Origin: Candidatus Iainarchaeum sp.
GTDB taxonomy: Archaea; Iainarchaeota; Iainarchaeia; Iainarchaeales; JAZDEL01
Assembly (NCBI GenBank): GCA_043808785.1
Contig: JAZDEL010000010.1
Coordinates: 30,001 to 62,000, forward strand
DNA: 32,000 nucleotides
Direction: 5' to 3'
Positions 3,074-30,747 of this stretch are shown piece after piece (position 1 is the first letter of the stretch; every line of letters begins with the position of its first letter). The notes beneath the pieces were generated by a model, which had not been told where the DNA came from, made no database searches, and saw only the letters and a program-made list of their open reading frames with translations. Both the position numbers and the translations under genes were made by a program.

Positions 3074-4276
3074 ATGCCCCCCGCAAGCAAGGCGCCCCTG
3101 ACTCGGGCAAGCAAGGCGCTCCTGGTAAGTTACGATTTCATGCCGCGCTTAGGCGGAAAGATAACTTACCTGCACGAGACATTCAGGCGCATGCCAGAGG
3201 GCAAAAAGGCGGTGCTCACCGCGAATTACCCCGGTGCACGCGCGTTTGACGCCACCGCGCCCTACAAAATCTACAGGTTCCCGCGCGCGCTTTTCAGCCT
3301 GCCCATGCCGCCCTTCCCGCGCATCTACCTCCTGAAGGTTTTGCTTTCCCTTCCTTACGCAATTTCCGTGTGCATGCGCGAGAAGCCCGATTATCTCATC
3401 GCCGGCCAGCTCCTGCCCGACGGCGTGCTTTGCCATTACCTTAGCAAGGTTCTGCACGTGCCTTATGCGGTGCAAACCTACGATACCATAGATGTGGAGA
3501 TGCCGCTGCACACCGCGGATGCGGCAATATGCAGGCTTGTTATGCGCGGCGCGGACCGCGTCTTTTACATAAGCGATTTCATGAGGGGCAAGGCCATAGA
3601 TGCGGGGGCGATGGAAGAACGTGCAGTGAAGGCGGAGCCGGGCACGGACCCCGAATTCTTCAGGCCGCACCTTGGCACAAGCGCGCTGAGGAAAAAGCAC
3701 GGCCTCGACGGAAAAAAGGTGCTCCTTACCGTGGCAAAGCTCTCGGAGCGCAAGGGGCACGCGCAGGTAATCCGCGCCCTGCCGCGCGTGCTTGAAAAGT
3801 TCCCCGAACTCGTTTACCTTATGGCAGGGAGCGGCAAATGCGAAGCCGAACTGCGCGGCCTTGCAGACAGCCTCGGGGTAAGCGGCAATGTCATTTTCCT
3901 CGGCAGCGTTGGCAATGCCGAACTCCCGCTCTACTACAACCTCTGCGACATTTTCATAATGCCGAGCTTTTACATTGCGGAAAAGTTTAAGTCGGAGGGT
4001 TACGGCATAGTTTTCCTCGAGGCGAACGCCTGCGGCAAGCCCGTGATAGGCGGCAGGAACGCGGGAATGCTTGATGCTGTTGCCGACGGAAAAACCGGCC
4101 TCTTGGTTGAGCCATCTAACGTCGAGGAGATTTCCTCCGCAATAGTAAAGCTCCTCTCAAACCCCTCCCTAGCGCGCAGGATGGGTAACGCGGGAAGGGA
4201 GCGCGTGCTAAATGAGCGCAACTGGGAAAATTCCGCAAAGGCGGTTTCCCTCGCGATTTTCGGGGGTTCGGCATGA
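3074..4276 (+). CDS. glycosyltransferase family 4
   Basis: ORF 2912..4276 trimmed to ATG 3074 (MPPASK...), because the upstream extension covers the promoter region. Motif: SEGYGIVFLEANACGKPVIGGRNAGMLDAVADGKTGLLV. Confidence 0.8.
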   Translation: MPPASKAPLTRASKALLVSYDFMPRLGGKITYLHETFRRMPEGKKAVLTANYPGARAFDATAPYKIYRFPRALFSLPMPPFPRIYLLKVLLSLPYAISVCMREKPDYLIAGQLLPDGVLCHYLSKVLHVPYAVQTYDTIDVEMPLHTADAAICRLVMRGADRVFYISDFMRGKAIDAGAMEERAVKAEPGTDPEFFRPHLGTSALRKKHGLDGKKVLLTVAKLSERKGHAQVIRALPRVLEKFPELVYLMAGSGKCEAELRGLADSLGVSGNVIFLGSVGNAELPLYYNLCDIFIMPSFYIAEKFKSEGYGIVFLEANACGKPVIGGRNAGMLDAVADGKTGLLVEPSNVEEISSAIVKLLSNPSLARRMGNAGRERVLNERNWENSAKAVSLAIFGGSA

Positions 4277-5685
4277 AAATAATCCTGTGCGACCCCGAGG
4301 GTGTCGTGAAAGGGCTGAACAACGGGCTTGCTTACATCGTTGCGGCGCTTGCAAAGCGCGGCTACTCTTCAGAAGTGCTTGACTGGAACAACCGCCCGGA
4401 AAACGCGGAGGAGAAGCTCCGCAGGCTTGCGGGTGCGGACATAATCGGCATCTCCATAAAGTCATTCACCCTGCGCGGCGCGCTTGAGATTGCGCGCATT
4501 GCGCGCGCGAAAAACAGGCGCGCCCTCATTGTTGCCGGCGGGCCGCACGTAACCCTTGATGCGGAAAACTTCCTGCGCGGGAATGCGGAGTTCGACGCCG
4601 CAATATTGCACGAGGCCGAGGACGCGTTCCCAGAGGTTGCGGATGCGGCCAAAGGCAAAGGAAAGCCGAAGCTTGCCGCGGTAAAGGGAATTATTTTCCG
4701 CTCTCGCGGCAAACTTGTGCGCACAAAGCCCCGCGCATTCAGGGAAAGCCTCGACAGCATACCTTTCCCGGATTATGCAGGCTTCGATTCGATGCCGCAG
4801 GCGATGCACGAATACCCGCTTGTCACAAGCCGCGGCTGCCCCTACCAGTGCACCTATTGCTCCGTCGGGAAAATCATAGGGAAAAAATTCCGTTTCCGCT
4901 CCCCGCAGAACGTTGTCGCGGAACTCGAACACGCGAAGGGCAAATATGGCATAACCTCCTTCTCCATACTCGACGACGATTTCACCCTGCTCATGGACAG
5001 GGCAAAGGAATTCTGCAGGCTGCTCATCGGGAAAAACCTCGCGCTCAAATGGTCGTGCCCGAACGGCATACGCGCCGACCGCCTCGATGCCGAGCTCGTG
5101 AGCCTGATGAAAAAATCCGGCTGTTCCTTTGTCGCGGTCGGTGTCGAGAGCGCCGACCCCGAGGTTTTCGCGGCAATAAAAAAGGGCGAAACCCTCGAAA
5201 CCGTAAGGGCGGCGATTTCACTGCTGCAGGGCGCGGGGATAGAGGTCACGGGCTATTTCATAGTCGGGCTGCCGCACTCCACTTTCGAAAGGGATTTGCG
5301 CTCCCTCGAATTTGCGCGCTCCGCAGGCCTCGACCACGCCTCGTGGGGCATTCTTGTGCCTTATCCCGGAACCGAGGTCTGGGACTGGGTGGGGAAAAAC
5401 GGCAAAATACTCAGGGACTGGAAGGAGGGCTTCCACTTCGGCTCCGAGCCCAAATGCGTTTTTGAAACTTCAGATTACTCTGAAGCGGAGAGGGTGCGCG
5501 CATACTTCATGCTGAACATGCGTTTCGGCAATTACCTTATGTTCTTCCCGCAGCGCGAGAACCGCGCTGTAAAGGCGGCGAAGGCGCTCGGCCTTGTGCT
5601 TAAGTATGACGCATCGCGCCTGCCTTTCCACATTGCGCAGATGGCGCGGGTTTTCGGCTCCGCGCTGGTTAAGGCGCGCGGCTAG
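4273..5685 (+). CDS. B12-binding-domain radical SAM protein (class B)
   Basis: N-terminal Rossmann-like region (ADIIGISIKSF...IVAGGPHVT) and SRGCPYQCTYCSV (CxxxCxxC). ATGA overlap with the upstream GT4 gene. Confidence 0.8.
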   Translation: MKIILCDPEGVVKGLNNGLAYIVAALAKRGYSSEVLDWNNRPENAEEKLRRLAGADIIGISIKSFTLRGALEIARIARAKNRRALIVAGGPHVTLDAENFLRGNAEFDAAILHEAEDAFPEVADAAKGKGKPKLAAVKGIIFRSRGKLVRTKPRAFRESLDSIPFPDYAGFDSMPQAMHEYPLVTSRGCPYQCTYCSVGKIIGKKFRFRSPQNVVAELEHAKGKYGITSFSILDDDFTLLMDRAKEFCRLLIGKNLALKWSCPNGIRADRLDAELVSLMKKSGCSFVAVGVESADPEVFAAIKKGETLETVRAAISLLQGAGIEVTGYFIVGLPHSTFERDLRSLEFARSAGLDHASWGILVPYPGTEVWDWVGKNGKILRDWKEGFHFGSEPKCVFETSDYSEAERVRAYFMLNMRFGNYLMFFPQRENRAVKAAKALGLVLKYDASRLPFHIAQMARVFGSALVKARG

Positions 5686-5708: not shown

Positions 5709-5715
5709 TTTATAT
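5709..5715 (+). promoter_or_regulatory. TATA-like box (TTTATAT) for module copy 1
   Basis: Starts 30 nt upstream of ATG 5739. Context aaatttatatgttttgcatccac resembles the copy-2 context ctttttatatgctttttgcactacac. Confidence 0.4.
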
Positions 5716-5738: not shown

Positions 5739-6443
5739 ATGGGTTTGCATATCGACCGCGGTATTTTGGTTCTTGCCGCCTCTGCCGCAGCCGCGGCCTT
5801 CCTCTACTCCTTCGTTTTCTGGCAGGCTTATCCCCCGATTTACAACGCGAACTCGCCGCAGGTGGGCTCGGATGCCGCCAGGTTTGACGCGGTTGTTTTT
5901 CTGGACTATTCCGCCCTCAGCAATGCGGTGTTTGTGCGGGGCGTGATTGAGCCGGTAATCAAGGACTACAGGGGCAGCGTCCGCTTCGTGTTCAAAGTGC
6001 TTCCAACAGACAGCAGGTGCAACCCGGAAACCAATTCCGAAGCCGTTTCATGTACCATGGCGGAGGCGCTTCTGTGCGCGCATGCACAGGGAAAATATTT
6101 CGAATATGCAGGCACTGTAGTGGATTTGATGCTTGCCTCCGCAAAGGACATGCCTGAATCCGCCGGGCAGCAGGTAGTCTACAATTTCTCGGAGGAAGAA
6201 GCCGGCCTCCTTGCTGCAGCGGTCGGGCTCGACAGGGAAAGGCTTGCGGCCTGCATTAAGGGGCATGACGCCCTGCCCGAAATACGCAACAACGCAATAG
6301 AGGGCCGCCTGTATTATCTGGAACACGTCCCCTGGGTGCTGGTCAACCGCAGCGCAGTCCCGTTCCATGAAGGCGCCACCGTGCAGGAGTCCTACCTTCT
6401 GCTGAAGGGCGCAATAGAAAAGGAGCTGAATAAAAATGGCTGA
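5739..6443 (+). CDS. membrane-anchored DsbA/BdbD-like thioredoxin-fold protein, CxxC absent (copy 1)
   Basis: N-terminal TM segment (ILVLAASAAAAAFLYSFVFW). The region aligning to the DsbA 'V.F.DF.CP.C' motif reads VVFLDYSALSNAVF. Retained features: cis-Pro-type loop EHVPWVLVN, AEALLCAHAQGKYF, LAACIKGH, and C-terminal IEKELNKNG (compare BdbD ...IEKELKGK). Confidence 0.65.
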   Translation: MGLHIDRGILVLAASAAAAAFLYSFVFWQAYPPIYNANSPQVGSDAARFDAVVFLDYSALSNAVFVRGVIEPVIKDYRGSVRFVFKVLPTDSRCNPETNSEAVSCTMAEALLCAHAQGKYFEYAGTVVDLMLASAKDMPESAGQQVVYNFSEEEAGLLAAAVGLDRERLAACIKGHDALPEIRNNAIEGRLYYLEHVPWVLVNRSAVPFHEGATVQESYLLLKGAIEKELNKNG

Positions 6444-7599
6444 GCACGGTAAGCCTGGGGGGCTGCCTGCGACGTTCTTCGGCCTCAGCCGCAGGCAGGC
6501 GCTGGCTCTTGCGGCAATTTTAATACTCGCCCTCGGCCTGCGCATCTACGGCATCGGCGACAGGATTGAGGCACCTGACGAGAATATGACCCTCCGGGCC
6601 ATGGGCGACATCGGCAACCTGTACAGCCAACTTGCGGAAGAGGATTTCCACCCCCCGCTTTATTACCTGCTCATTTCTCCCGCATACCTCATTATGCCCG
6701 GCCTTGTTTCAATCCGCCTTGTGGGGGCGCTCCTCGGCGCCTTAACTGTGCTTGCGGTTTTCTTCCTCGCAAGGGAATTCATGGATGCGCGCAAGTCGCT
6801 CATTGCCGCCTTTCTCTTCGCAATCTACCCTTACTCAATTGTTTATTCCCAGCAGGCGAGATGCTATGTGCTTGTCATACTGCTTTCCACGCTTTCCACG
6901 CTTGTTTGGGTAAGATTCCTGAAGGGGAAGGGCAGCCCTATCCTTCTGGTTCCGCTTTATGCCGCCACTGCCTACACGGACTACACCGCAGTTTTCGGGA
7001 TAGCCGTGCAGGCAGCCATAACCCTGCTGCTTAAGTTCCGCACACCCGAAGCCAAAAAATATTTTGGTGCACTTGCGCTGTCCGCAATCCTCTGCCTGCC
7101 TTTATGTTTCCTCCTGGCGGAGCAGCGGGCCATAGGGGTTGCGGCAGTGAAATGGGGCTCCGGAGTTGACGCCCACATAGTGCTGGATTATCTGCGGCAG
7201 GGCATCGGCACCGAATACGGCCTGTATTTCAACAGCCAGCTCGGCATAACCGGCAGGCCGATACCACAGCTCTTCCTCCCCGCGGTTGCCGCCTGGGTTC
7301 TGGCTTTCATCGGCATCTCAATGCTTTGGAGAAGGAGGGCCGACTTTTACGCGCTTGCGGCGCTGTACCTGCTTGCCTCCCTGCTCGTGTTCTTTGCAGG
7401 GCTTGTGCTGTCGTACCCCCCGCAGCACAGGTTTATCCTCTTCCTGACGCCGCTTCTCATCCTTTTCATTGCCGAGGGCACGGACTTCAGGTCGATTGTG
7501 CGCACAACGCTCTTTTTCATAGTGCTCTTCGGCTGGTGCCTTGCGGTGCTCTTCTACTACTCGCATCTCCTTGACCTGCACTACATCGGGCTGCCGTAG
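6436..7599 (+). CDS. GT-C fold membrane glycosyltransferase, GT39/GT83 (PMT_2/ArnT)-like, no soluble domain (copy 1)
   Basis: About 12 hydrophobic segments. First loop carries APDEN (DE motif). Also FHPPLYYLL, IYPYSIVYSQQARCY, and C-terminal LFYYSHLLDLHYIGLP. Confidence 0.65.
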   Translation: MAEHGKPGGLPATFFGLSRRQALALAAILILALGLRIYGIGDRIEAPDENMTLRAMGDIGNLYSQLAEEDFHPPLYYLLISPAYLIMPGLVSIRLVGALLGALTVLAVFFLAREFMDARKSLIAAFLFAIYPYSIVYSQQARCYVLVILLSTLSTLVWVRFLKGKGSPILLVPLYAATAYTDYTAVFGIAVQAAITLLLKFRTPEAKKYFGALALSAILCLPLCFLLAEQRAIGVAAVKWGSGVDAHIVLDYLRQGIGTEYGLYFNSQLGITGRPIPQLFLPAVAAWVLAFIGISMLWRRRADFYALAALYLLASLLVFFAGLVLSYPPQHRFILFLTPLLILFIAEGTDFRSIVRTTLFFIVLFGWCLAVLFYYSHLLDLHYIGLP

Positions 7600-7700
7600 C
7601 TGCGCGTTCCTGAGGGACTGCCCGGCCGGCTGAAGCGGCAATCCGGCGGGTTTATGGCAATTGTGGCGGATTGTTTTCACGGGGCGCCTAACATGCGCTT

Positions 7701-7707
7701 TTTATAT
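7701..7707 (+). promoter_or_regulatory. TATA-like box (TTTATAT) for module copy 2
   Basis: Starts 31 nt upstream of ATG 7732. Context is conserved with the copy-1 promoter. Confidence 0.4.
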
Positions 7708-7731
7708 GCTTTTTGCACTACACCAGATAGG

Positions 7732-8457
7732 ATGAAGCCGGATGGGATATGGGGGCTGCCTGTCTCTGCGAATGGGGGGCGCAACCTGCTGATTTCAGTC
7801 GCGGTTGCATTTTTTTTGTATTCCTTTGTTTTCTGGCAGGATTACCCGCTCCTCGACAACGGCAATGCGCCGCAGATTGGCCCCGAAGGCGCCGAGGTCA
7901 AGGTGGTTGTTTTTGTGGATTATGCCTTCTTCGGAAATGTAATGTTTGTGCGGGGCGCGCTGGAGCCGCTGATTAAAGAGTATAATGGCCGCGCCAGCTT
8001 CGTGTTCAGGGTTCTTCCAGCGGACCGCAAGTGCAACCCAGAAACCGATTCGGAAACCGCTTCCTGCGCTTTGGCTGAGGCGTTGTTCTGCTCCCGCGAG
8101 CAGGGGCTGTATTTTGCATATGCCAATGCTGTAATGGATTTCATGGCTGCCGGCGCAATGAGCCTGCCCGAAAGCGCCCGCCCGTCGATAGTCCACAATT
8201 TCTCGGGGCAAGAGCTGGATTATCTGGCGGTGCAGGCGGGGCTTGACAAAGAAAAATTTGCGGCATGCATTAAAGAGCACAACGCCGGGCAGGAAATACG
8301 CAACAATGCCATAGCGGGCAGGCTCTATTATTTGGAGCGCACCCCCCACGTGCTGGTTAATCACAGGGTTGTCAATTTCCGCAAGGGGATAAGCATAAAT
8401 GAGTCCTATCTTCTGCTGAGAAGCGCAATAGAAAAGGAGCTGCAGGGCCATGCCTGA
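7732..8457 (+). CDS. membrane-anchored DsbA/BdbD-like thioredoxin-fold protein, CxxC absent (copy 2)
   Basis: ORF 7654..8457 trimmed to ATG 7732 by alignment with copies 1 and 3 and by the TATA position. The CxxC position reads VVFVDYAFFGNVMF. Loop ERTPHVLVN; C-terminus IEKELQGHA. Confidence 0.65.
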   Translation: MKPDGIWGLPVSANGGRNLLISVAVAFFLYSFVFWQDYPLLDNGNAPQIGPEGAEVKVVVFVDYAFFGNVMFVRGALEPLIKEYNGRASFVFRVLPADRKCNPETDSETASCALAEALFCSREQGLYFAYANAVMDFMAAGAMSLPESARPSIVHNFSGQELDYLAVQAGLDKEKFAACIKEHNAGQEIRNNAIAGRLYYLERTPHVLVNHRVVNFRKGISINESYLLLRSAIEKELQGHA

Positions 8458-9616
8458 GCAAAAACCACTCGTGAATTTTTCGGATTTCCTGCGCGGCAAC
8501 AGCCGCATGGCGCTTCTCGCCCTTGCGCTCATTTTCATCCTTGCGCTCGGCCTGCGCATCTACGGCATATCTGAAAAGATTGAAGCGCCGGACGAGAACC
8601 TGACCCTTGCGGAATTGAGCAGGTTTACCCCCGCGCCTGTTGAGGGCGCAGCCTTTGATTTCAACCCCCCGCTCTACTACTTCCTTGTTGCGCCGGCATA
8701 CCTCCTCGCCCCGGGCCTTGCCTCGGTGCGCCTGATGGGCGCGCTCTTCGGCGCCCTTACAGTGCTTGTTATTTTCTTCCTCGCAAGGGAATTCATGGGT
8801 GAAAACAAATCCCTCCTTGCCGCATTCCTCTTCGCCATCTACCCTTACTCCATTGTTTATTCCCAGCAGGCGAGGAACTATGCCCTCGCCGCGCTGCTGT
8901 TTTCGGTTTCCCTCATTTTGTGGGCCAGGCTGATGAAAGGAAAAGGGCAGCCGTGGCATCTCGCCGCTGTTTATGCAGCAATGCTCTATGCCCACTACTT
9001 CCTTATATTCGGCATAATCGGCCAGGCTGCGGTAACATTGCTGCTGAAAATGAGGGGCAAAGCCCCTGATTTCGGGAAGTTTGTTAAGGTAGCCGCGATT
9101 GCGGCAGCATTGTCAATCCCCCTATTTTTCATTCTTGCTTCACAGTATGGGTATAGCGGGATGTCGAAAAGCACCCCGTCCATTGACCCGCGCTTTGTCC
9201 TGAATTACCCGCGCCACGGCATAGGGCTGGATTACGGTTTTAATTTCAATTCCGTATACGGCATTTTCGGTGCGCCAATACCGAGGCTTATTTTGCCGAT
9301 TCTTGCGGCATGGGCGCTGGCGCTGGCAGGCATGCGGATGCTCCTGAAAAAGGGGGGCGGCATGCCCGCGCTTGTAAAATTGTATTTTGCCATCCTTCTT
9401 ATTGTAGTTCTTGCAGGTTTCGCTTCCCCCCCGCTTGCCCGCCCGCAGTACATATTCTTTACAACGCCCCTTTTCATCCTGTTCATCGCCAGGGGCGCGG
9501 ATTACGAACGGCTGCCGCTTGCAATGCTCTTCTGCATTTTGGTTCTCGGCTGGCTGCAGGCGATATTGTTCTATTATTCCCACTTGCCCGACCTGCACTA
9601 TATCGGCCTCCCTTAA
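8450..9616 (+). CDS. GT-C fold membrane glycosyltransferase, PMT_2/ArnT-like (copy 2)
   Basis: APDEN, FNPPLYYFL, IYPYSIVYSQQARNY, LFYYSHLPDLHYIGLP. Confidence 0.65.
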   Translation: MPEQKPLVNFSDFLRGNSRMALLALALIFILALGLRIYGISEKIEAPDENLTLAELSRFTPAPVEGAAFDFNPPLYYFLVAPAYLLAPGLASVRLMGALFGALTVLVIFFLAREFMGENKSLLAAFLFAIYPYSIVYSQQARNYALAALLFSVSLILWARLMKGKGQPWHLAAVYAAMLYAHYFLIFGIIGQAAVTLLLKMRGKAPDFGKFVKVAAIAAALSIPLFFILASQYGYSGMSKSTPSIDPRFVLNYPRHGIGLDYGFNFNSVYGIFGAPIPRLILPILAAWALALAGMRMLLKKGGGMPALVKLYFAILLIVVLAGFASPPLARPQYIFFTTPLFILFIARGADYERLPLAMLFCILVLGWLQAILFYYSHLPDLHYIGLP

Positions 9617-9734
9617 TGGCGATACGCATGGGCTGCACGGAGTTTTCGGCGATAATCCCCGCAGGCAACGGAAATGCCATGCTTTTAACAATAGTTATGG
9701 ACACACATAGTTTTTGGCAGGGGGGCGTGCAGGC

Positions 9735-10424
9735 ATGGAATTGAGCGAAAAACACGTCTTCTTTATTTCCGCGCTCGCGGTTATCGTTCTCTATTCCTTT
9801 GTTTTCTGGCAGGATTATCCGCTTCTTGACAACAGCCGCGACCCGCAGGTGGGCCCGCAGAATGCCGCGGTTGACGTGGTTATATTTGCGGATTATTCCA
9901 CCTCCCGCAGCGCGGCATTTCTTTCGGAAGTAATGTGGCCCCTTATCGAGGAGTACAGGGGCCGCGTGCGCTTCGTCTTCAAGATGTTTCCCATGGACAA
10001 GCGGTGCAACCCCGAAGTGATTTCAATGCTCCCTTCCTGCGATTTTGCCGAGGCATTGTTATGCGCAGATGCGCAGGGGGGATTTGAAGCATACAGCAAG
10101 GCCGCGGCGAAACTTGTTCTTGAGGACATGAACAGCCTGCCCGGGGGCTTGACCCCCGGCGTGCATGTTTTTTCAGAGCGCGAATTGTACTCTTTGGCGG
10201 GGCAGGCGGGGCTGGATAAAGAAGAATTTGCGGTTTGCATTAAGCAGCACGGCTCGGCAGGGCAAATACGCGACAATGCCATGGAGAGCCGCCTGTATTA
10301 TATTTCCGCTACCCCCGCAGTGCTTGTCGGCTATATGCGCATTTCGGGTGCCGACCTGTCTGCGGAAGATTTTAATGTTCTGCTGAAGAACGGCATAGAA
10401 AAGGAGCTGAGCAGGCATGCGTAA
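9735..10424 (+). CDS. membrane-anchored DsbA/BdbD-like thioredoxin-fold protein, CxxC absent (copy 3)
   Basis: ORF 9714..10424 begins at TTG; ATG 9735 (MELSEKHVFFISALAVIVLYSFVFWQDYPLLDN) is preferred. The CxxC position reads VVIFADYSTSRSAAF. Loop SATPAVLVG; C-terminus IEKELSRHA. Confidence 0.6.
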   Translation: MELSEKHVFFISALAVIVLYSFVFWQDYPLLDNSRDPQVGPQNAAVDVVIFADYSTSRSAAFLSEVMWPLIEEYRGRVRFVFKMFPMDKRCNPEVISMLPSCDFAEALLCADAQGGFEAYSKAAAKLVLEDMNSLPGGLTPGVHVFSERELYSLAGQAGLDKEEFAVCIKQHGSAGQIRDNAMESRLYYISATPAVLVGYMRISGADLSAEDFNVLLKNGIEKELSRHA

Positions 10425-11643
10425 AAAAAGTCATTTTAGAGGGGGGTCCGATGCGGAGGAGCCGCACGAGGGGGAGTCAGATGCAGGAAAGCCTGTCGCC
10501 GGCCTGCCGGGTTTTTTGCGCGGCAACAGCCGCAGGGCGCTTCTCGCGCTCGCGCTTATTTTCATCCTCGGCCTCGGGCTGCGCCTTTACGGCATTTCCG
10601 AGAAAATCCAGGCGCCTGACGAGGATGTGACCCTCGCACGGTTGAGCGGTTTTACCGCGGCGCCGGTGGAAAGCCCTGCCCCAGATTTCAACCCCCCCTT
10701 ATACTACCTCCTTGTGGCGCCCGCATACCTGATAGCGCCCGGCCTCGCATCCGTGCGCCTGATGGGCGCACTCTTCGGCGCCCTTACAGTGCTTGTTATT
10801 TTCTTCCTTGCAGGGGAATTCATGGGTGAAAACAAATCCCTCCTTGCCGCATTCCTCTTCGCCATCTACCCTTACTCCATTGTTTATTCCCAGCAGGCGA
10901 GGAACTATGCCCTTGCAGTGCTGCTTTTTGCCATTGCAACCCTCTTTTGGGTAAGGTTCCTGAAGGGGAAAAACAGCGCCAGGGCGCTGCTCCCCATCTA
11001 TGCCGCAATGCTTTACACGCACTACGTGCTGATTTTTGGCGTACTTGCCCACGCCGCAATCACCTTTTTCCTTAAGGGCAGCAGCGGCGCGGAAAGCAGG
11101 AAATACCTCTTTTCGGTTGCGGTTGTTGCGCTCCTAGCGGTTCCGCTGCTCCTGCTTATTGTGATGCAAGGCGGGCAAACCGGGCTGTCAAATTCTGCAG
11201 CGGCATCATTCGACAGCCGCGCCGTGCTTAATTACTTCAGGCAGGGGGTCGGAATCGATTATGGCTTCTACTTCGGCAACGCCTACGGCATCTACGGAAG
11301 GCCGGTGCCCAAGTTCATGGTGCCTGCAGCCGCGTGCTGGGCATTGGTATTTTTGGGCCTGTTTGCCCTCTGGAGAAAAAGGGAGGACTTCTTCATTCTT
11401 GCCGGCACATATTTCCTGGTTGCGTTCGTTGCCCTTGTTGGAGGCATGTTCTCCACCTTTCTTGCGCAGCCCCACTACCTGCTTTTCATAACCCCCGTCT
11501 TCCTGCTGTTCATTGTGCGCGGCACAAATTTCAAATCCATCCCCCGCACGGTTCTTTTCCTGCTGGTTGTGGGCGGCTGGCTGCAGGCAATATTGTTTTA
11601 TTATTCCCACTTGCCCAACCTCCATTATATCGGCCTCCCTTAG
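10417..11643 (+). CDS. GT-C fold membrane glycosyltransferase, PMT_2/ArnT-like (copy 3, acidic N-terminal extension)
   Basis: APDED, FNPPLYYLL, IYPYSIVYSQQARNY, LFYYSHLPNLHYIGLP. Extra N-terminal segment SDAEEPHEGESDAGKP. Confidence 0.65.
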   Translation: MRKKSHFRGGSDAEEPHEGESDAGKPVAGLPGFLRGNSRRALLALALIFILGLGLRLYGISEKIQAPDEDVTLARLSGFTAAPVESPAPDFNPPLYYLLVAPAYLIAPGLASVRLMGALFGALTVLVIFFLAGEFMGENKSLLAAFLFAIYPYSIVYSQQARNYALAVLLFAIATLFWVRFLKGKNSARALLPIYAAMLYTHYVLIFGVLAHAAITFFLKGSSGAESRKYLFSVAVVALLAVPLLLLIVMQGGQTGLSNSAAASFDSRAVLNYFRQGVGIDYGFYFGNAYGIYGRPVPKFMVPAAACWALVFLGLFALWRKREDFFILAGTYFLVAFVALVGGMFSTFLAQPHYLLFITPVFLLFIVRGTNFKSIPRTVLFLLVVGGWLQAILFYYSHLPNLHYIGLP

Positions 11644-11653
11644 CGGTGTTTTT

Positions 11654-12385
11654 ATGAAGCCGGAATATTCCGTCATTATTCCCGCAAGAAACGAGGAAGA
11701 GACGATAGCCCCGGCTATCGGCGCGCTCCGCAAAACGCTGAAGGGCAATTACGAGATAATAGTCGTGAACGATTCCTCCGCAGACAACACCGCGGGAATT
11801 GTTGCGCGCCTTGAAGGGGCAAGGCGTTCCATCCGCCTTGTTCATTCCGAGAAGAGGGGTTTCGCAAATGCGCTCCTGCGCGGCATTGCCGCGTCGCGTT
11901 CGCAGGCCGTGGTGCCTGTAATGGCCGACCTGTGCGACAGGCCAGAAGACGTAAACCTGATGTTTGGAAAGATGGCGGAAGGATACGGCATTGTGTGCGC
12001 TTCCCGCTACATGAAGGGCGGCAGGCGCATAGGCGGTTCGCGCGCAAAGGCATTTTTTTCCTGGTTTGTGGGGCTCCTCTTCAACAGGCTTATAGGGGTG
12101 CCGACTGCGGACTCCACAAACTCGTTCAAGATGTACAGGAAGGATGTTTTGAGGAAGGTTCTGCCGAAACTGCTGAAGGGCGGCAGTTTCAGTTTTTCGC
12201 TCGAGGTGACAATGCTTGCCTACTTCAGCGGATTCCGCATAACCGAACTCCCCACTGTTTGGAGGGAGCGGAGCGAGGGCGTGTCAAAGTTTAACGTGCC
12301 CAACATGGCGCCGGAGTACTTTTCCGTATTTCTGGATGCCTTGAAGAGGAAACTGCAGGTTCTTGCGGGCGGGCGCGAGGCATGA
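11654..12385 (+). CDS. GT2 glycosyltransferase, polyprenyl/dolichyl-phosphate sugar synthase (Dpm1)-like
   Basis: ORF 11513..12385 trimmed to ATG 11654 (MKPEYSVIIPARNEEETI); the extension overlaps the upstream gene. Motifs: IIVVNDSSADNT, VMADLCDRPEDV, ASRYMKGG, DSTNSFKMYRKDVL. Confidence 0.7.
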   Translation: MKPEYSVIIPARNEEETIAPAIGALRKTLKGNYEIIVVNDSSADNTAGIVARLEGARRSIRLVHSEKRGFANALLRGIAASRSQAVVPVMADLCDRPEDVNLMFGKMAEGYGIVCASRYMKGGRRIGGSRAKAFFSWFVGLLFNRLIGVPTADSTNSFKMYRKDVLRKVLPKLLKGGSFSFSLEVTMLAYFSGFRITELPTVWRERSEGVSKFNVPNMAPEYFSVFLDALKRKLQVLAGGREA

Positions 12386-12471
12386 TGCGTAAGATGCATG
12401 CCCTTGCGGGCAGGCGCTTGGCATGATGTGCAGGCTGCAGGTTCTCGCAGGCAGGTGCTTGGCATGATGTG
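12352..12471 (+). repeat. three imperfect tandem 40-41-nt repeats spanning a gene junction
   Basis: Units at 12352-12390, 12391-12430 and 12431-12471. Core is cttgcgggcaggcgcttggcatgatgtg. The ATGA tetranucleotide recurs at 12382, 12423 and 12464 (exactly 41 nt apart). Confidence 0.8.
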
Positions 12472-13579
12472 CGCTTGCCCGAAAGCCGCCGCGCATAAGG
12501 GCGGGCAGGCCCGGGCAAAAGTAACCGTTCTGCGGAAATGCAAAGGCTGCACCTATTCCCCGCCGGCGCGCGCGTCATACTCGTCCGGGCAGCTTTCCAC
12601 GACAGGGCTCTGCCTGCAGGCATTGCACACCGCATTCCCTTACATTCTCACACTCGGCAACGGCGGCAATTTCGGCTGGGAGCGCGAGGGCAGGGTTTTT
12701 GCGCAGTGCCCAGGCCCCGACGGCAGGGTGGATATGCGCATAACGGGGGAAAGCGTAACCGTTTCCGCGCTGGAGGGCGTTTGCCGCGCAAAGCACAAAG
12801 TCGGCGGGCATTTTCACGTTTCCCAAAAAGGCGGCTTCTGCCTGCGCGCCTTCGATTCCGTTTTCCCGTACCTGCTTCTTGCAATGCGCAGCGGCGGAAG
12901 TGCCCGCAGTTACGGGGTTTCCTGCCCGCATCCCGGGGGCGCGGTTTTCGAAATATCCCGCGCAGGCAGGAAAAGGCTCGGGAAAGGCGCAAGGCGCAAA
13001 AAATCCGCGGAACCTGTCTGCGGCACGGCATCCCCTTTCGCGGTAAGCGTTGCCTCAATGTCGAAGAGGTGCGGCAAATACCATCCGAAGCAGGGGGAGG
13101 TTTTTGATGCCTTGCGCCTCGCGCCCAAAGGGCTCTGCCTGCACGCATACCATGTTCTCTACCCTTACGCCCTTGCGCTGCTTTACGGCGCCGATCTTTC
13201 AGCCCTGGGTTCGGGGGGGCGTGGCTCGGTTGTTGTCCGCTGCCCGAACGGCGCGGCAACCTTCGAGGTTTGCCGCAGCGGCAAAAAGGGGAAAAAGGCG
13301 ATTGCACTGCTTAACAGGATTTCCAAAGAAATCCGCCCTGTGGACCTGCCGCTCTACGGCATTTCGATGCGCGTTGTTTCCGTGCACGGGCACTGCCCGC
13401 AGAAGCACCGTGCCGGCGAGAAGTTCGGGCTGAAGGAGTTCAACATCCTTGGCAGGAAAGAGCTCTGCCCGGCGGGGTTTGATGCCGTGTTCCCGCTCAT
13501 GTTTGCGCCGAGGGGGGCAAAACTGCGCGCGCGCTGCCCGGATTCTGGGGCAAACGTGGTTTATGAAGCGGAACAGTGA
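12464..13579 (+). CDS. protein with four tandem TIGR04076-like Cys-containing domains, function unknown
   Basis: Four repeats of about 70-80 aa at roughly nt 12518-12748, 12752-12961, 13037-13276 and 13361-13573. Each has the pattern C...G..F...(G)(L/F)C..A...(F/Y)P(Y/L)......G........CP....(A/V).(F/V). Domain 1 carries GNGGNFGWEREG...QCPGPDGRV, typical of the roughly 90-aa TIGR04076 family as I recall it. Start is ATG 12464 (MMCACPK) or in-frame ATG 12398. Confidence 0.55.
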   Translation: MMCACPKAAAHKGGQARAKVTVLRKCKGCTYSPPARASYSSGQLSTTGLCLQALHTAFPYILTLGNGGNFGWEREGRVFAQCPGPDGRVDMRITGESVTVSALEGVCRAKHKVGGHFHVSQKGGFCLRAFDSVFPYLLLAMRSGGSARSYGVSCPHPGGAVFEISRAGRKRLGKGARRKKSAEPVCGTASPFAVSVASMSKRCGKYHPKQGEVFDALRLAPKGLCLHAYHVLYPYALALLYGADLSALGSGGRGSVVVRCPNGAATFEVCRSGKKGKKAIALLNRISKEIRPVDLPLYGISMRVVSVHGHCPQKHRAGEKFGLKEFNILGRKELCPAGFDAVFPLMFAPRGAKLRARCPDSGANVVYEAEQ

Positions 13580-13694: not shown

Positions 13695-14741
13695 TCACCC
13701 GCGGTTTCCGAGAAGTACCGCCTTTGCCGCATTAAAAAGCGCGCGCCTCTCGAGGCCGAGGATTGCGCACGCCTCGACGTCCCCGTTCGCGTGGCAGGAG
13801 TAGCACCCCCTCTCCGCAAGGTTATCCCACGCCTTTTCAAACCCTGCATCGCGCATGTTAATCCCGCGCTTCCACATTGCGGGGCAGCCGTAAATGCCGC
13901 CGTCAGAATCTATCCAGCAGCTGAGCGTGCCCACATTGCATTTCATAACTTTCGAAAGGTCGTATTTAGCCTTGTCCTTTTTGTAGATGACGTCGCTGTC
14001 TTTTGCAGGCCAGTTCAGCACGTGGTCGAAGAAAGCGTCGGAGTTCAGCACCTTGTGCCCGCGCCTCTTCATTTCCCCGAGCCTGGCGAAGAATTTGCTT
14101 GTTTCCGCGGGCGTAACCACAAAATCGCCGATCCTTGCCTCGTCCGTCGCCTGGTACTGCGAGTAATTGAACGCCGCGCCGTATTTTTTCGCCAGTTCCG
14201 CTAATTCATCCAGCGAGCCGATGCTGTATTTCGTCAGCACCGCGTGCAGCCTTAAGTTTGCGCCCGCAAGGTGTGCGGCTTCAATCGCCTCCAGCGCCCT
14301 GTCATAAGTTCCCTTTCCCCTGCACTTCTCTGTTGCACGCCTGTTGCCGTCGATGCTTATGCAGACCGAGTGCACCTTCTTCAGCAGCGGCAGGTGCTGC
14401 TTGAGCAGGGTGCCGTTAGTGACAAGCTCCACGATTATGTTCTTCTCCGCAAACTTGTCTACAATCCTGTAAATGTCCTTCCTCATGAGCGGCTCCCCGC
14501 CGACAACGCGCACCCACCTCGTGCCCATTGTAGCGAGCTTGTCTATAAGCGCGAGTATTTCCTCGGTGCTCAGCTCTTCCTTGTCCCTGAGGCTTTCAAG
14601 GTCGGCGTAGCAGTAGCCGCACCGCAGGTTGCAGTGCTTGGTTATCTGGAAGTTCACGTAGAGCGGCTTCCTTGCCCCCGTCAGCCTGCAATACAAAATT
14701 TCAAAAAACAGCGCCGTGCCCGCGGTCAATGGATTTGCCAT
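13695..14741 (-). CDS. radical SAM / SPASM-domain protein
   Basis: ORF 13695..15200 trimmed to ATG 14741 (MANPLTAG); the extension is antisense to the SDR gene and promoter. Motifs: ITKHCNLRCGYCYAD (CxxxCxxC), VVGGEPLM, and a C-terminal Cys-rich region KCNVGTLSCWIDSDGGIYGCP...RGCYSCHANGDVEAC. Confidence 0.75.
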   Translation of the reverse strand: MANPLTAGTALFFEILYCRLTGARKPLYVNFQITKHCNLRCGYCYADLESLRDKEELSTEEILALIDKLATMGTRWVRVVGGEPLMRKDIYRIVDKFAEKNIIVELVTNGTLLKQHLPLLKKVHSVCISIDGNRRATEKCRGKGTYDRALEAIEAAHLAGANLRLHAVLTKYSIGSLDELAELAKKYGAAFNYSQYQATDEARIGDFVVTPAETSKFFARLGEMKRRGHKVLNSDAFFDHVLNWPAKDSDVIYKKDKAKYDLSKVMKCNVGTLSCWIDSDGGIYGCPAMWKRGINMRDAGFEKAWDNLAERGCYSCHANGDVEACAILGLERRALFNAAKAVLLGNRG

Positions 14742-14763
14742 AGGGAATAACACCCCCGCTGTC

Positions 14764-14842
14764 TTTAAAAAAGTATGCGGGCTTGTGCATTTATGCTGGG
14801 GCTTTGGGTTTAAAAAAATATGCGGGGTTGTGTATTTTATGC
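14764..14842. promoter_or_regulatory. divergent promoter with tandemly duplicated (45-nt period) TATA-box/start module
   Basis: tttaaaaaagtatgcgggcttgtgcatttatgc (14764-14796) and tttaaaaaaatatgcggggttgtgtattttatgc (14809-14842). The second copy ends in SDR start ATG 14839. The first A/T box is centred about 27 nt from the rSAM/SPASM ATG at 14741. Confidence 0.45.
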
Positions 14843-15606
14843 GGAAGCTCGAGGGAAAGGTCGCGCTGGTTACGGGCGGCTGCCGCGGCCTGGGCAGGCA
14901 TATTTCGCTGCTTCTTGCAAGGCACGGCGCGGATGTGGCAATCGTCGGGCTGGACAAGGGGCGCCTCGCCGCCACGGGGCGGGAGCTTTCCGTGCTGGGC
15001 TCCGAGGCACTCGCGTGCAGGTGCGATGTGCGCAGCCTGAAAGACATAACCGCGGCAACAAAAAAAATTTCAAAAAGGTTCGGCAGGGTGGACATCCTCG
15101 TGAATAACGCGGGATTGGCAAACAAGCAGACCCTGGACGAAATCTCCCACGGCGAGATAGACAACATCATCGATACAAACCTTTCGGGGCTTATCCACAT
15201 GACAAAGGCAGTGCTTCCGCTAATGCCGAAGCAGAAGGGCAGCGTGATTGTGAACGTTTCCTCCCTCGCTGGCAGGATTGCGGTCCCAAGGCACAGCGTT
15301 TATGGCGCTACGAAATTCGGGGTTGCCGGGTTCACGCAGTCCCTTGCCAAGGACCTGAAAAAAACGGGGGTGCGCGTTTACGCCCTGTGCCCGATGGGCA
15401 TAGATACCGAAATGGCCAGAGTTTTCGAGCCAGGCTATGAGAAGCTCAGGGACAACGGGCTTCTGCTCGGCCCCGAGAGTGTTGCGGAAAAGGCGGTTGC
15501 GTTGTGCATGCCCTCCTGCGGGAAGCGCACAGGCTCGCTCGTGAACGTTATGAATTACAGGGCGCTCTTGCTTCGTCCCGAGAAATTGCTGCGCGCCCTG
15601 CCCTGA
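14839..15606 (+). CDS. short-chain dehydrogenase/reductase (SDR)
   Basis: ORF 14716..15606 trimmed to ATG 14839. Motifs: KVALVTGGCRGLGRHI (TGxxxGxG), NNAG, SSLAG...YGATKFGVAGF (S...YxxxK). Confidence 0.85.
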   Translation: MRKLEGKVALVTGGCRGLGRHISLLLARHGADVAIVGLDKGRLAATGRELSVLGSEALACRCDVRSLKDITAATKKISKRFGRVDILVNNAGLANKQTLDEISHGEIDNIIDTNLSGLIHMTKAVLPLMPKQKGSVIVNVSSLAGRIAVPRHSVYGATKFGVAGFTQSLAKDLKKTGVRVYALCPMGIDTEMARVFEPGYEKLRDNGLLLGPESVAEKAVALCMPSCGKRTGSLVNVMNYRALLLRPEKLLRALP

Positions 15607-15644
15607 AAATCGCGGAAACGAAACAGAATAATTGCGGGAGCGGA

Positions 15645-16130
15645 ATGCGGATGCGCCATGTTGACAGGAAGCGGGCCGAATTCATACTGCGGCAGCTCGG
15701 CAGGCTGGAAACTAAAAGCCCGCGCATACTCGATGTCGGCGCGGGCGACCTGTGGCTGACAAAACTCCTGCGCGCCCGCGGCTATAATGTAACCTCGCTT
15801 GACCTCTCGGGAAGGGCGGACATAATTGCCGACTTCAATACGCACAATTTCAAAACGAGTTTTGACGCAATAATTGCGGTTGAGGTTGTTGAGCACGGCC
15901 TCGGCCTTGAAAAGGTTTTTGCCCTCCTGAAGCCGGGCGGAATATTCATAGCCACGACAATTTACCCTTACTTCGATTTTCCCTGCAAGATACTCGAGGC
16001 AATAGGCCTTGCGAAGCCGCGCAAAACAGCGCACACAAACCTGCTTTACCTGAAAAGCCTGCCGTACAAACTTGTCGATTTTGAGGATTATTTCATGATG
16101 GACCAGTTCGGCGCCTTCGGAAAAGGGTGA
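15645..16130 (+). CDS. class I SAM-dependent methyltransferase (small)
   Basis: ORF 15504..16130 trimmed to ATG 15645, after the SDR stop at 15606. Motifs: ILDVGAGDLWLTKLL (motif I), VTSLDLS, LKPGGIFIATT. Confidence 0.7.
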   Translation: MRMRHVDRKRAEFILRQLGRLETKSPRILDVGAGDLWLTKLLRARGYNVTSLDLSGRADIIADFNTHNFKTSFDAIIAVEVVEHGLGLEKVFALLKPGGIFIATTIYPYFDFPCKILEAIGLAKPRKTAHTNLLYLKSLPYKLVDFEDYFMMDQFGAFGKG

Positions 16131-16891
16131 ATGGCGCGTGCGTTGCAGGCTGCGTGGTGATTGCATTGCAGGACAAGGAAAAGGAACGGGAATTTTTTGA
16201 CCGCATTGCGGTTAATGAAAGGCGGTTTGAATACTTTTCGCGGCATGCGTTCGAAAAAATCTTCGCGGAATTCAGTTCTTTTTGCAGGCCGGGCAAAGAT
16301 TCCTCGATAGCGGATTTCGGCTGCGGCAGCGGGGAATTCACAAAAAAACTGGCTGAAATTTCCCGGAATGTAACCGCCTTCGACATATCCCCCGAGTGCA
16401 TTAAAATTGCAAAGGAAGAGGTTAAGGGGGCAACATTCCGTGTGGCGGATGCCGAAAACACCCCCTTCGGGCCGGATTCTTTCGACATTGTTACCTGCAT
16501 AAGCCTTTTGCACCATTTTTCCGATCTTACCGGTGTTTTAAACGAGGCCCAAAGGGTGCTGAAGCCCGGCGGAAAGCTGTTTGCCGTGGACTCGAACAAG
16601 AGGAACCCGATTCTCTGGCTTTACAGGTGCAGCGAATCCCCGTTCTATTCAAGCAGGGGAATTTCCCCGAATGAGAGGCTGCTGACCGCGCAGGAGCTGA
16701 CGCGGAAGCTGCACGAAGCCGGCTTTGAGGCCAGGGTACTGGCAATAGCCCCGCTGTATTATTCAAAAGCAAGGAGCCTTCCGAAAATCTGCGTCCATGC
16801 AAACAACCTCTTTGAGTTTTTCCTATCACTCTCCCCCATCGCTTACGAAAGGTTCGGCTCTTTTCTTTTTACCTATGCGGAAAAGAAGTGA
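16127..16891 (+). CDS. class I SAM-dependent methyltransferase (Methyltransf_11-like)
   Basis: IADFGCGSGEFTKKLA, VTAFDISPECI, FDIVTCISLLHHF, LKPGGKLFAVD. The annotated start is GTG overlapping the upstream stop; nearby GTG/TTG starts at 16154-16166 are possible. Confidence 0.75.
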   Translation: MNGACVAGCVVIALQDKEKEREFFDRIAVNERRFEYFSRHAFEKIFAEFSSFCRPGKDSSIADFGCGSGEFTKKLAEISRNVTAFDISPECIKIAKEEVKGATFRVADAENTPFGPDSFDIVTCISLLHHFSDLTGVLNEAQRVLKPGGKLFAVDSNKRNPILWLYRCSESPFYSSRGISPNERLLTAQELTRKLHEAGFEARVLAIAPLYYSKARSLPKICVHANNLFEFFLSLSPIAYERFGSFLFTYAEKK

Positions 16892-21128: not shown

Positions 21129-22102
21129 TCCTTGACACGCCCCTTTGCGGCGCCGTTTATAACTCCTGCCGCAAGCCCCGCGGCAAAAACAACGGAGCGG
21201 AGCGCAATCACGAATGGCGCAACAATTCCCGCCGCGAAATCCCTGCGCATTGCAAAGATTGTGAAAGGCAGTGTGCTGAGCGCGCCCAGCACCAGTGCTG
21301 CGGCGGGCACAAAAATAAGCGAAGGCATAAAAACCGTTGCTGCAGCGCCCGCGCAGAAGATACAGAACAGCCCTATCTGCATCTTTAAAATCTGCGGAGT
21401 ATAAGAATCCCTTATCGCCTTGCTCCTGTGCTTGCTGTAGAGCAGGACGCGCCAGTACGCGCGGTAGAACTTGCTTTTGAGGTAAGGGAGCAGCGCGCTC
21501 TGGTGCCTGTGGAAGACTATCGCCTCGGGATTGAATATCAGCCTGTGCCCTTTTTTGGAGAGCTTGAAGCTAAGTTCGGGGTCCTCTCCCGAGGCAATGG
21601 GGAATGATTCGTCGTATCCGCACTCCTCCACGAAAACCTTCCTGCGGTACGCCGCGGAGTACGAGCCGACCCAGTCGAGGCTTCTCATGCGCCTCATCCT
21701 GTTGTACCTGTCCTCTATCTCTATCTGCGAGAACCTTGCGATAAGCTCGCACTGTTTCGTTTTATACGCGCCCTGCACACCTGCGACATCCCTTTCCAAG
21801 AACGGCTTAAGCAGTTCCGCAAGCCAGTTTTCCGAGGCAGTGCAGTCCGAGTCTATGAATGCAACGAATTCACCCCCTGCGTTTTTCACGCCGCGGTTCC
21901 TCGCCGATGCCGGCCCCGAATTCTTCTGGCTTATGTATTTCGCCCCGAACCTTTTCACAACTTTTGCCGTTCCGTCGGTGCTCCCGTCATCGACAACAAT
22001 AACCTCGAAACCGCCGGCAACCTTCTGCCGCAGCACGGATTCAAGGCAGGCGGAGATTGTTTTCTCCGCGTTGTACACGGGGATTATGACGCTGGCCTTC
22101 AT
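21125..22102 (-). CDS. glycosyltransferase family 2 with C-terminal membrane segments
   Basis: SVIIPVYNAEKTI, VIVVDDGSTDGT, FIDSDC, hydrophobic C-terminus. ATGA-type overlaps at both ends. Confidence 0.8.
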   Translation of the reverse strand: MKASVIIPVYNAEKTISACLESVLRQKVAGGFEVIVVDDGSTDGTAKVVKRFGAKYISQKNSGPASARNRGVKNAGGEFVAFIDSDCTASENWLAELLKPFLERDVAGVQGAYKTKQCELIARFSQIEIEDRYNRMRRMRSLDWVGSYSAAYRRKVFVEECGYDESFPIASGEDPELSFKLSKKGHRLIFNPEAIVFHRHQSALLPYLKSKFYRAYWRVLLYSKHRSKAIRDSYTPQILKMQIGLFCIFCAGAAATVFMPSLIFVPAAALVLGALSTLPFTIFAMRRDFAAGIVAPFVIALRSVVFAAGLAAGVINGAAKGRVKE

Positions 22103-23865: not shown

Positions 23866-24026
23866 GAAGTTCACGCCCTTCCGCGCCCTGCTGCCGCACT
23901 TTTGCGTGCCGGCATGCCTTCACACCCCCGCGCGCGCACGGTGCGCGCATTTGCGTGCCGGCATGCGCCCGTCCGCCCTCGCGCACGGAGGCACGCGCGG
24001 CATCCCGCTTCCCTGCGCAGCCATGC

Positions 24027-24230
24027 TTACTTCCCCTTCCCTTTCTTCACGCTTCCCAGATAAGGGATGCTTATTATTCCGCCCTTGCCGCCCTTTGCGG
24101 AACTCAGCGCCTGCCTGAGGATGTATTTTATCCACTCGCTCGGGGAACTGAAGCCCGTGCCCTTTATCTCCGCGGCGATTTCATCGTACATCCTTTTCGG
24201 TATAGCAATCGTCACCTTGTCCAAATGCAC
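24027..24230 (-). CDS. ribbon-helix-helix (CopG/Arc-type) DNA-binding protein
   Basis: 67 aa. KVTIAIPKRMYDEIAAEIKGTGFSSPSEWIKYILRQAL matches the beta-strand/helix/helix RHH pattern, followed by a Gly/Lys-rich tail. The start codon is GTG (24230); alternative starts are TTG (24224) or GTG (24215). Confidence 0.6.
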   Translation of the reverse strand: MHLDKVTIAIPKRMYDEIAAEIKGTGFSSPSEWIKYILRQALSSAKGGKGGIISIPYLGSVKKGKGK

Positions 24231-25669: not shown

Positions 25670-25680
25670 GCCGTTCGCCC

Positions 25681-26481
25681 CTACATATACCCAAGCGTCC
25701 TGAGCTTCTGCATCATGTACGCTGTCTCCTTGTCCTGCGCCCTTCCCGCCCTTTCCGCGGTGTTTGTGTTTTCCAGTTCATCTATTATCTCATCGATGTT
25801 TTTTGCGTTGGATTCAATCGGCTGGCAGCAGGTTGTGCAGCCTATGCTCCTGTACCTCTTTCCGTTGCGCGAAAAATAAAGTTCCGTTATCGGTATGCCC
25901 TCGCGCCTTATGTATTTCCAGATATCAACCTCACGCCAGTGCAGCAAAGGATGCACGCGCACGTGCTCCTCCTCCTCAAGCTTGTTCTTGTACTGGTCCC
26001 ACATTTCCGCGGGCTGGTTCTTGTAATCCCACTCGAAATCCTCATTGCGCGGGGAAAAATAACGCTCCTTTGCGCGTATTCCGTGCTCGTCCCTCCTTAT
26101 GCCGAGCAGCAGCGCCCTGAGCTTGTGCTCCGCAATAGTTTTCTTGAGCGCGTTTGTCTTGAGTTCCGTGCAGCACTCGAGCCTTCCCTTGGAGGGGCAG
26201 ACCCCGCGCGCTATTGCCGCCTCGTTTTTCCCCACAACAAGGCTCAGTCCCCACTCCTTTGCATACTTGTCCCTGAATTCGTACATCTCGGGGAACTTAT
26301 AGCCCGTGTCTATATGCATCACGGGAAACGGCAGCCTGCCGTAGAACGCCTTCCTGCAGAGCCAGAGAAGTGTCGTTGAATCTTTGCCTATGCTCCAAAG
26401 CAGGGCAATGCCCTTGAACTGGCGGTATGCCTCGCGTATTATGTATATGCTCCTGCTTTCCAGTTCGCTCAGGTGGTCCAT
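25681..26481 (-). CDS. cysD: sulfate adenylyltransferase subunit 2
   Basis: [31 protein letters not shown] (PP-loop), [37 protein letters not shown]. Collinear with E. coli CysD as I recall it. Confidence 0.9.
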
Positions 26482-30739: not shown

Positions 30740-30747
30740 CGCCACAC

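Follow-up and report, generated by a model that had tools for sequence, protein, structure and literature searches.

What would an archaeon gain from keeping, three times in a row, the gene of a DsbA-fold protein devoid of its redox motif coupled to the gene of a glycosyltransferase devoid of a soluble domain? The question is raised by a stretch of 32,000 nucleotides from Candidatus Iainarchaeum sp. (assembly GCA_043808785.1, contig JAZDEL010000010.1, positions 30,001 to 62,000), hereafter the window, in which three consecutive pairs of genes, called here A and B, are followed by the gene of a Dpm1-like glycosyltransferase of family GT2. As argued below, the framework to which these genes point, glycosylation from lipid-linked sugars outside the cell, is a known one, and what is new is an unprecedented candidate, the A protein as a DsbA-type accessory subunit of a GT-C glycosyltransferase.

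The table of open reading frames (ORFs) of the window was checked against the NCBI gene calls of the source metagenome-assembled genome (MAG), and the lengths agree. On the forward (+) strand, A1 (5739–6443, 234 amino acids) is followed by B1 (6436–7599, 387 amino acids), A2 (7732–8457, 241 amino acids) by B2 (8450–9616, 388 amino acids), and A3 (9735–10424, 229 amino acids) by B3 (10417–11643, 408 amino acids); the GT2 gene (11654–12385, +, 243 amino acids) begins 10 nt past the B3 stop. A sequence-only reading of the window had proposed these three consecutive pairs, with a Dpm1-like GT2 directly after the third, and every ORF matched exactly. It had also noticed that B starts 8 nt before the stop of its A, which is true of all three pairs (ATGGCTGA, ATGCCTGA, ATGCGTAA), and we found a GGAGCTG motif conserved 6 nt upstream of every B start (3/3 pairs). 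Among ~15 billion proteins, the sole other carrier of the pairing was a 927-bp Logan contig (L081) from a near-identical relative, in which an A3 orthologue (88% amino acid identity) precedes the first part of a B3 orthologue (80% over 60 amino acids) with the same 8-nt overlap. The retention of this coupling and of the GGAG motif in three diverged copies, and of the coupling in L081, argues that A and B form a functional unit.

The A proteins had been predicted to be single-pass anchored, thioredoxin-fold (DsbA/BdbD-like) and without a CxxC motif, a description that profile and structure searches upheld throughout. All three copies score above the Pfam gathering threshold for Thioredoxin_4 (24.1 bits for A1 against a cutoff of 23.2, 28.3 bits for A2, and 40 bits for A3) and combine an N-terminal transmembrane (TM) anchor with a DsbA-fold domain. 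The copy chosen for modeling, A3, gave a confident AlphaFold2 (AF2) model from 93 sequences (predicted local distance difference test score [pLDDT] 89, predicted template modeling score [pTM] 0.83), with an N-terminal helix at residues 5–24, then a beta-alpha-beta unit, a helical insert, and a beta-beta-alpha unit. Its best Foldseek matches in the PDB were DsbA/TsdA of C. diphtheriae and BdbD (E ~1e-10 for these), Chlamydia DsbA, and ScsC. At the position aligned with CxxC, A1, A2, and A3 read ALSN, FFGN, and TSRS, respectively, and the L081 orthologue reads TSSS. Yet A shares with the DsbA, BdbD, and VKOR-associated DsbA family not only the fold but also the four structural cysteines (C94, C105, C113, and C172) and a predicted cis-Pro loop, in which P198 is invariant and VP/TP/TP aligns with the GTP of the relatives. 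As the CxxC is absent from all copies and the fold is retained, A is best described as a DsbA-fold pseudo-oxidoreductase rather than a functional member of a family that the CxxC defines. The dN/dS ratio between A3 and its L081 orthologue is 0.33, so A is evidently under purifying selection. Moreover, the juxtamembrane stretch LYSFVFWQ.YP is invariant across the three paralogues, which appears unusual for a mere anchor.

Relatives of A were collected with HMMER by searching all of 1.84 billion representatives, and 149 A-like hits were considered. The sole representative at E ≤1e-30 was A itself, and it was followed (1e-22 to 1e-10) by VKOR-DsbA fusions and tandem DsbA proteins; the nearest relatives also include DsbA proteins of DPANN archaea, which have an N-terminal anchor as A does. 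The CxxC motif is present in 144 of the 149 hits, with a consensus active site of CPxC, and 101 of the 116 DPANN DsbA hits read CPFC. Genomic partners differ as well, being DsbB or VKOR for the DsbA family and a GT-C for A. Members with a degenerate CxxC occur sporadically in the DPANN family (P0102, P0214, P0239, P0264, and P0268). Among these, P0239 is without cysteine, P0268 reads CPFS, and P0102 (L082/L083/L084, 6001–6687) is a DPANN-type DsbA in which CPFC has become SPFS and which lies divergent from an adjacent DsbB gene, an odd setting for a redox-dead DsbA. P0102, whose C-terminus is A-like, was considered as a remote A orthologue and rejected, its neighbor being DsbB and not a GT-C.

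The B proteins had been read as short GT-C enzymes of ~390 amino acids with APDEN/APDED, (H/N)PPLYY, and YSQQAR.Y motifs and no soluble extracytoplasmic domain. These motifs are present in the B copies, all three copies score above the Pfam gathering threshold for PMT_2 (38.7 bits for B1 against 26.1), and D48 and E49 of loop 1 (APDEN/APDED) are invariant in an alignment of 13 sequences, the three B proteins and ten distant relatives. The profile searches thus placed A in Thioredoxin_4 and B in PMT_2 as predicted. The AF2 model of B2, the copy chosen here (pTM 0.68), has ~11–13 helices and is confident over residues 10–230; its best PDB matches by Foldseek were STT3, Pmt4, ArnT, ALG9/12, AftA, and Emb, and all of the top 39 hits were GT-C enzymes or the GT-C-like subunit of the GPI transamidase. 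No copy reached a curated NCBIfam cutoff. The best sub-threshold family was TIGR03663 (Agl23) for B2 and B3 and archaeo_STT3 for B1, with TIGR03663 second, and an MT1671-type mannosyltransferase family was also matched. In B3 the cytoplasmic N-terminal tail is longer than in B1 and B2.

Non-hydrophobic stretches in B reach at most 36 amino acids. By comparison, the ten nearest non-self relatives (488–677 amino acids) all carry a C-terminal non-hydrophobic domain of 119–287 amino acids, which begins at residue 365–406 in nine of them. Since all ten carry this domain, B looks like a TM core from which the soluble domain is missing, and since such a domain is not universal in GT-C enzymes, B is a variant but still a GT-C. 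The idea that something replaces the missing domain thereby gains support.

The GT2 protein scored 99 bits against the Pfam GT2 family, and its best PDB sequence hits were GtrB (3e-15), PfDPMS of Pyrococcus (4e-13), and ArnC (3e-11), in line with the Dpm1-like class first assigned to it. PgfS, ArnC, DolP-hexose transferase, AglJ, and PpgS were matched in NCBIfam, all below their equivalog cutoffs. By its sequence, the protein belongs to the polyprenyl-phosphate glycosyltransferase class. No TM helix was detected by hydropathy, whereas GtrB, ArnC, and PfDPMS have C-terminal TM helices. Dpm1-like GT2 enzymes make the polyprenyl-phosphate-sugar donors that GT-C enzymes use; from the adjacency of this GtrB/DPMS/ArnC-class gene, B is predicted to transfer a polyprenyl-phosphate-linked sugar to an acceptor.

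To what extent the three pairs have diverged bears on what each might do. The A paralogues are 45–55% identical in amino acid sequence and the B paralogues 52–60%, and DNA repeat families recur across the array with a period of 2014/2027 nt. With identities of only 45–60%, the copies are old paralogues and not assembly repeats. The pair appears to have been duplicated twice as a unit, keeping identical translational coupling down to ~50% identity. Within B, the N-terminal half is 70–97% identical between paralogues and the C-terminal half 25–55%, the three copies being roughly equidistant there. The extreme is a tract of ~180 nt shared by B2 (8720–8900, +) and B3 (10747–10927, +), with 93–100% nucleotide identity and an exact run of 100 nt (8787–8886 and 10814–10913), compared with 40–60% identity between the two genes beyond it. 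This tract spans the invariant AAFLFAIYPYSIVYSQQAR region, and synonymous sites within it are identical too, which indicates a presumed recent gene conversion across the region of the catalytic motif. The same tract accounts for a discordance between the trees, in which A1 and A2 are the closest A pair and B2 and B3 the closest B pair, as the B paralogues are roughly equidistant elsewhere. A conserved N-terminal half joined to a diverged C-terminal half would fit enzymes that have the donor and catalytic side in common and have drifted apart on the acceptor side. This is suggestive only, and the argument is weakened by the fact that C-terminal modules of GT-C enzymes evolve faster in general.

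Two described systems follow the logic that we suspect here. In the AglD/AglR/AglS branch of Haloferax volcanii N-glycosylation, a dolichyl-phosphate (Dol-P) sugar is made, flipped, and transferred outside the cell (PMC3871713), and the bacterial three-component GtrB/GtrA/Gtr* systems likewise consist of a donor synthase, a flippase, and a GT-C (PMC11127046). In both, a Dpm1-like GT2, such as the window has, makes the polyprenyl-phosphate sugar; the GT-C (AglS or Gtr*) attaches this sugar, on the outer side of the membrane, to a glycan that has been built beforehand, and several GT-Cs can share one donor synthase, comparable to the one GT2 and three GT-Cs found here in a glycan island. The window differs in that no flippase gene was found in it, in that its GT-Cs are reduced to a TM core, and in that translational coupling joins each GT-C to a DsbA-fold protein devoid of CxxC, for which the described three-component systems have no counterpart.

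The closest counterpart to this additional component is found in the eukaryotic oligosaccharyltransferase (OST), in which the GT-C STT3 works with thioredoxin-fold subunits, Ost3p/Ost6p in yeast or MagT1/TUSC3 in mammals; in yeast, substrate specificity depends on whether the isoform contains Ost3p or Ost6p (PMC8191290, PMC4137057), and the oxidoreductase activity of MagT1 is required for some sites (PMC4137057). The likeness lies in the combination of a GT-C catalytic subunit with a membrane-anchored thioredoxin-fold subunit on the luminal or extracytoplasmic side, and in paralogous thioredoxin-fold subunits that define isoforms with different acceptor preferences. However, in Ost3, Ost6, and MagT1 the thioredoxin fold is a plain one with an active CxxC, and several TM helices are present, whereas A has a DsbA-type fold that includes a helical insertion, a single TM segment, and no CxxC, and B belongs to the PMT_2 type rather than to STT3. 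No Ost3, Ost6, or TUSC3 chain was found among the PDB sequence hits of A at E ≤1 nor among its top 50 Foldseek hits; with neither a sequence nor a structural hit, the likeness is one of functional analogy and not of homology beyond the superfamily. The sequence-only reading knew of no described system with this pairing. As a general statement this holds only in part: our literature search found no DsbA- or thioredoxin-like partner of a GT-C apart from OST, which does pair STT3 with Ost3/Ost6/MagT1, and no CxxC-less DsbA-type partner of a PMT_2 enzyme.

In the mechanism that we propose, the GT2 would load a sugar onto dolichyl phosphate at the cytoplasmic face, the charged donor would be flipped across the membrane by a component outside those found in the window, and the three paralogous B enzymes would transfer the sugar to a glycan or glycoprotein outside the cell. 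Each A would be a non-catalytic subunit of its cognate B, replacing the C-terminal soluble domain that the relatives carry in cis, and would help to hold or select the acceptor, functionally like Ost3/Ost6/MagT1. In the duplicated pairs, the N-terminal half of B, its presumed donor side, stayed conserved, whereas its C-terminal half diverged, as did A in the helical insert and at the C-terminus. This pattern would fit a single donor that serves either three acceptors or three positions or linkages on one glycan. These parts are not equally secure. Extracytoplasmic glycosylation of the Dol-P-sugar/GT-C type, as in the AglD/AglS or Gtr systems, is probable, a Dol-P-sugar being the presumed donor. 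That A is a subunit physically associated with B comes close to an even chance without quite reaching it, and that A specifically binds the acceptor is a doubtful proposition, if a possible one. For the region as a whole, we tentatively favor, with somewhat more doubt than belief, a system for extracytoplasmic glycosylation from lipid-linked sugars that has been elaborated in one uncultured lineage. The boldest version, in which a redox-dead DsbA was recruited as the acceptor-recognition subunit of a truncated GT-C, amounting to an independent re-invention of the Ost3/Ost6–STT3 arrangement with three specificities served by one Dol-P-sugar synthase, is conceivable but rather unlikely.

Several results weigh against the proposal that A serves B as a subunit. 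The pairing was also expected in related genomes, and there it was found only in L081, which is trivial given the closeness of that relative. The word-indexed search of 5.8 billion clusters returned nothing else close to A or B, metagenome scans with peptide patterns derived from A and from B found no relatives, and a scan with the B alignment of a genome collection that excludes the source genome recovered only distant bacterial PMT_2 genes, with ≤42% identity over the N-terminal half. At 80 such distant loci, hidden Markov model (HMM) scans found a DsbA-like ORF in 0–1 and a GT2 similar to that of the window within 8 kb in 38; the association of a GT-C with a Dpm1-like GT2 is therefore general and that with a DsbA is not. 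In the other direction, no GT-C neighbor was present at any of the four readable loci of CxxC-degenerate DsbA proteins (P0102, P0214, P0239, and P0268), and a Pfam scan of ten A-like hits, CxxC-less and long ones included, showed no fusion to a GT-C. As far as these sequences go, the pairing is not conserved past one very close relative and is lineage-specific. The C-terminal half of the B2 model is of low confidence (pLDDT <50). An IEKEL C-terminus of A, considered as a constraint imposed by the ribosome-binding site of B, was rejected as evidence of coupling, the motif being family-wide. Neither AglB nor a flippase of the GtrA, Wzx, MATE, or AglR type was seen in the window, the flippase scan having covered, with Pfam, the 28 ORFs outside the module (27 of them at least 150 amino acids long; in the two places where long ORFs overlap, both members were scanned) plus one sizeable gap. 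As aglD is unlinked in Hfx. volcanii, the flippase gene could lie elsewhere (PMC3871713). Finally, some GT-C enzymes consist of the TM core alone (PMC11127046), so B may need no partner.

Much of this would also suit the explanation that co-expression is all that links the envelope proteins A and B, B acting alone and A being a redox-inactive DsbA-like holdase, chaperone, or adaptor for secreted proteins. CxxC-degenerate DsbA homologues do occur sporadically without a GT-C neighbor, PMT_2 loci are generally free of DsbA genes, and a core-only GT-C has precedents. What makes this explanation unlikely is that the identical 8-nt coupling was kept in L081 and in three copies at ~50% identity, that A and B were always duplicated together, and that three diverged chaperones, each locked to one GT-C paralogue, would not be expected. 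A different division of labor is offered by Haloarcula hispanica, in which a Dpm1-like GT2 (Agl22) and a short GT-C-like membrane protein (Agl23) handle Dol-P-hexose; Agl23 has been put forward as a candidate flippase of glc-/gal-P-Dol, and in liposomes the purified protein moved a lipid-linked glycan across the membrane (PMC11182771). B could by analogy be an Agl23-like factor that flips or otherwise provides Dol-P-hexose together with the GT2. The ranking of TIGR03663 among the NCBIfam matches and the similar shortness of this profile (~435 positions) speak for it, as does the lack of any other flippase candidate in the window. Yet with 22–35 bits against a cutoff of 126.25, B is not a member of TIGR03663, and the matches cover it only in part (the N-terminal ~150 residues of B2 and B3, residues 24–289 of B1). 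B also keeps the loop-1 D-E motif of catalytic type and YSQ(Q/E)AR.Y, common to PMT_2 transferases, and there is no easy reason why one donor synthase should have three diverged flippases. B has A, whereas no DsbA-like partner of Agl23 has been reported. We give this second explanation slightly less credit than the first.

Enzyme genes can also lie beside the genes of their targets, as in Pseudomonas, where a pilin gene is followed by tfpO or tfpW, and A might accordingly be the acceptor substrate of the neighboring B. Being extracytoplasmic and tethered to the membrane, A would be within reach of the B active site, and cognate substrate/enzyme pairs would likewise duplicate as units. But A has no Ser/Thr-rich linker, and no N-x-S/T sequon is common to the three copies (NFS in A1 and A2, VFS in A3); the loss of CxxC and the invariant juxtamembrane motif would be left unexplained, all of which makes A an improbable substrate. 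The least likely explanation by far is that the A genes are functionless, decaying DsbA remnants or that the array is an artifact of assembly or duplication. It is true that the catalytic CxxC has gone from every copy and that a single MAG lineage is the only known source of the array, but none of the six ORFs is broken, A retains its structural cysteines and cis-Pro loop, the dN/dS of 0.33 was obtained against an independently assembled relative, the AF2 model of A3 is confident, and the copies are too diverged to be assembly repeats.

Should A prove to be a B subunit, the pair would be the first case in prokaryotes of a GT-C whose specificity subunit is a separate thioredoxin-fold protein, and a clear example of a DsbA pseudo-enzyme gaining a new role. 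A TM core with a detachable acceptor module would then offer parts for glyco-engineering and a simple, modular model for studying acceptor choice by GT-C enzymes and, by analogy, the possible origin of the accessory subunits of the eukaryotic OST. If A and B are independent, the region would be an unusual but ordinary part of a DPANN surface-glycan island.

The signals upstream of the pairs are partly repeated. Archaeal TATA-like TTTATAT boxes lie 30 nt upstream of the A1 ATG (5709–5715, +) and 31 nt upstream of the A2 ATG (7701–7707, +), and none was found upstream of A3, in line with the sequence-only reading, which had placed a box about 30 nt ahead of copies 1 and 2 and only weaker AT-rich stretches ahead of copy 3. 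This spacing suggests TATA boxes of leaderless or near-leaderless archaeal transcripts. TTTATAT occurs three times in the 32 kb against 2.4 expected, which is not above chance, so the informative part is its repeated position upstream of A1 and A2; the third occurrence lies ~22–28 nt from the start of a gene at 28245. The position of the second box also favors an A2 start at 7732 over a longer ORF start at 7654, in agreement with the 241-amino-acid NCBI call.

Downstream, the GT2 gene is followed after 12 nt by the gene of a protein with four tandem TIGR04076 domains (12398–13579, +, 393 amino acids), which may be cotranscribed with it but whose membership in the module is uncertain. The TIGR04076 profile has 91 positions, and single-domain members are expected to be ~90 amino acids long. 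The first ~55 residues of this ORF are perhaps untranslated, and its opposite-strand neighbor is a radical-SAM/SPASM gene.

The window, an island for surface-glycan biosynthesis in an uncultured DPANN archaeon, also codes for five GT4 and two further GT2 glycosyltransferases, a nucleoside diphosphate (NDP)-sugar nucleotidyltransferase, an epimerase/dehydratase, CysN and CysD, two B12-radical-SAM proteins, the radical-SAM/SPASM protein, two methyltransferases, AsnB, and two phosphodiesterase-family proteins. Scans for Rfam families and tRNAs found nothing in the window. The sulfate adenylyltransferase genes (24329–26481, −), CysN-like with EF-Tu GTPase domains and CysD-like with a PAPS_reduct domain, would serve sulfate activation; the B12-binding radical-SAM genes lie at 4273–5685 and 26618–28111 and the two methyltransferase genes at 15504–16891. 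Together, these genes suggest that the surface glycan is sulfated and methylated. Large Phosphodiest proteins of the alkaline-phosphatase superfamily flank the island (349–1818, −, and 22099–23874, −) and may transfer phospho-substituents to the glycan or remove them.

An ORF of 67 amino acids (24027–24230, −) lies upstream of the CysN-like gene, in the one intergenic gap of sizeable length; its N-terminus was judged by eye to be ribbon-helix-helix/CopG-like (VTIAIPKRMYDEI...SEWIKYILRQAL). The radical-SAM/SPASM ORF (13695–15200, −) has ~170 N-terminal amino acids without a domain match and overlaps the SDR ORF on the opposite strand (14716–15606, +), the true starts being probably near 14735 for the radical-SAM gene and near 14850 for the SDR gene. 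Another overlap, of 172 nt, is found between the ORFs at 30026–30919 and 30748–31650.

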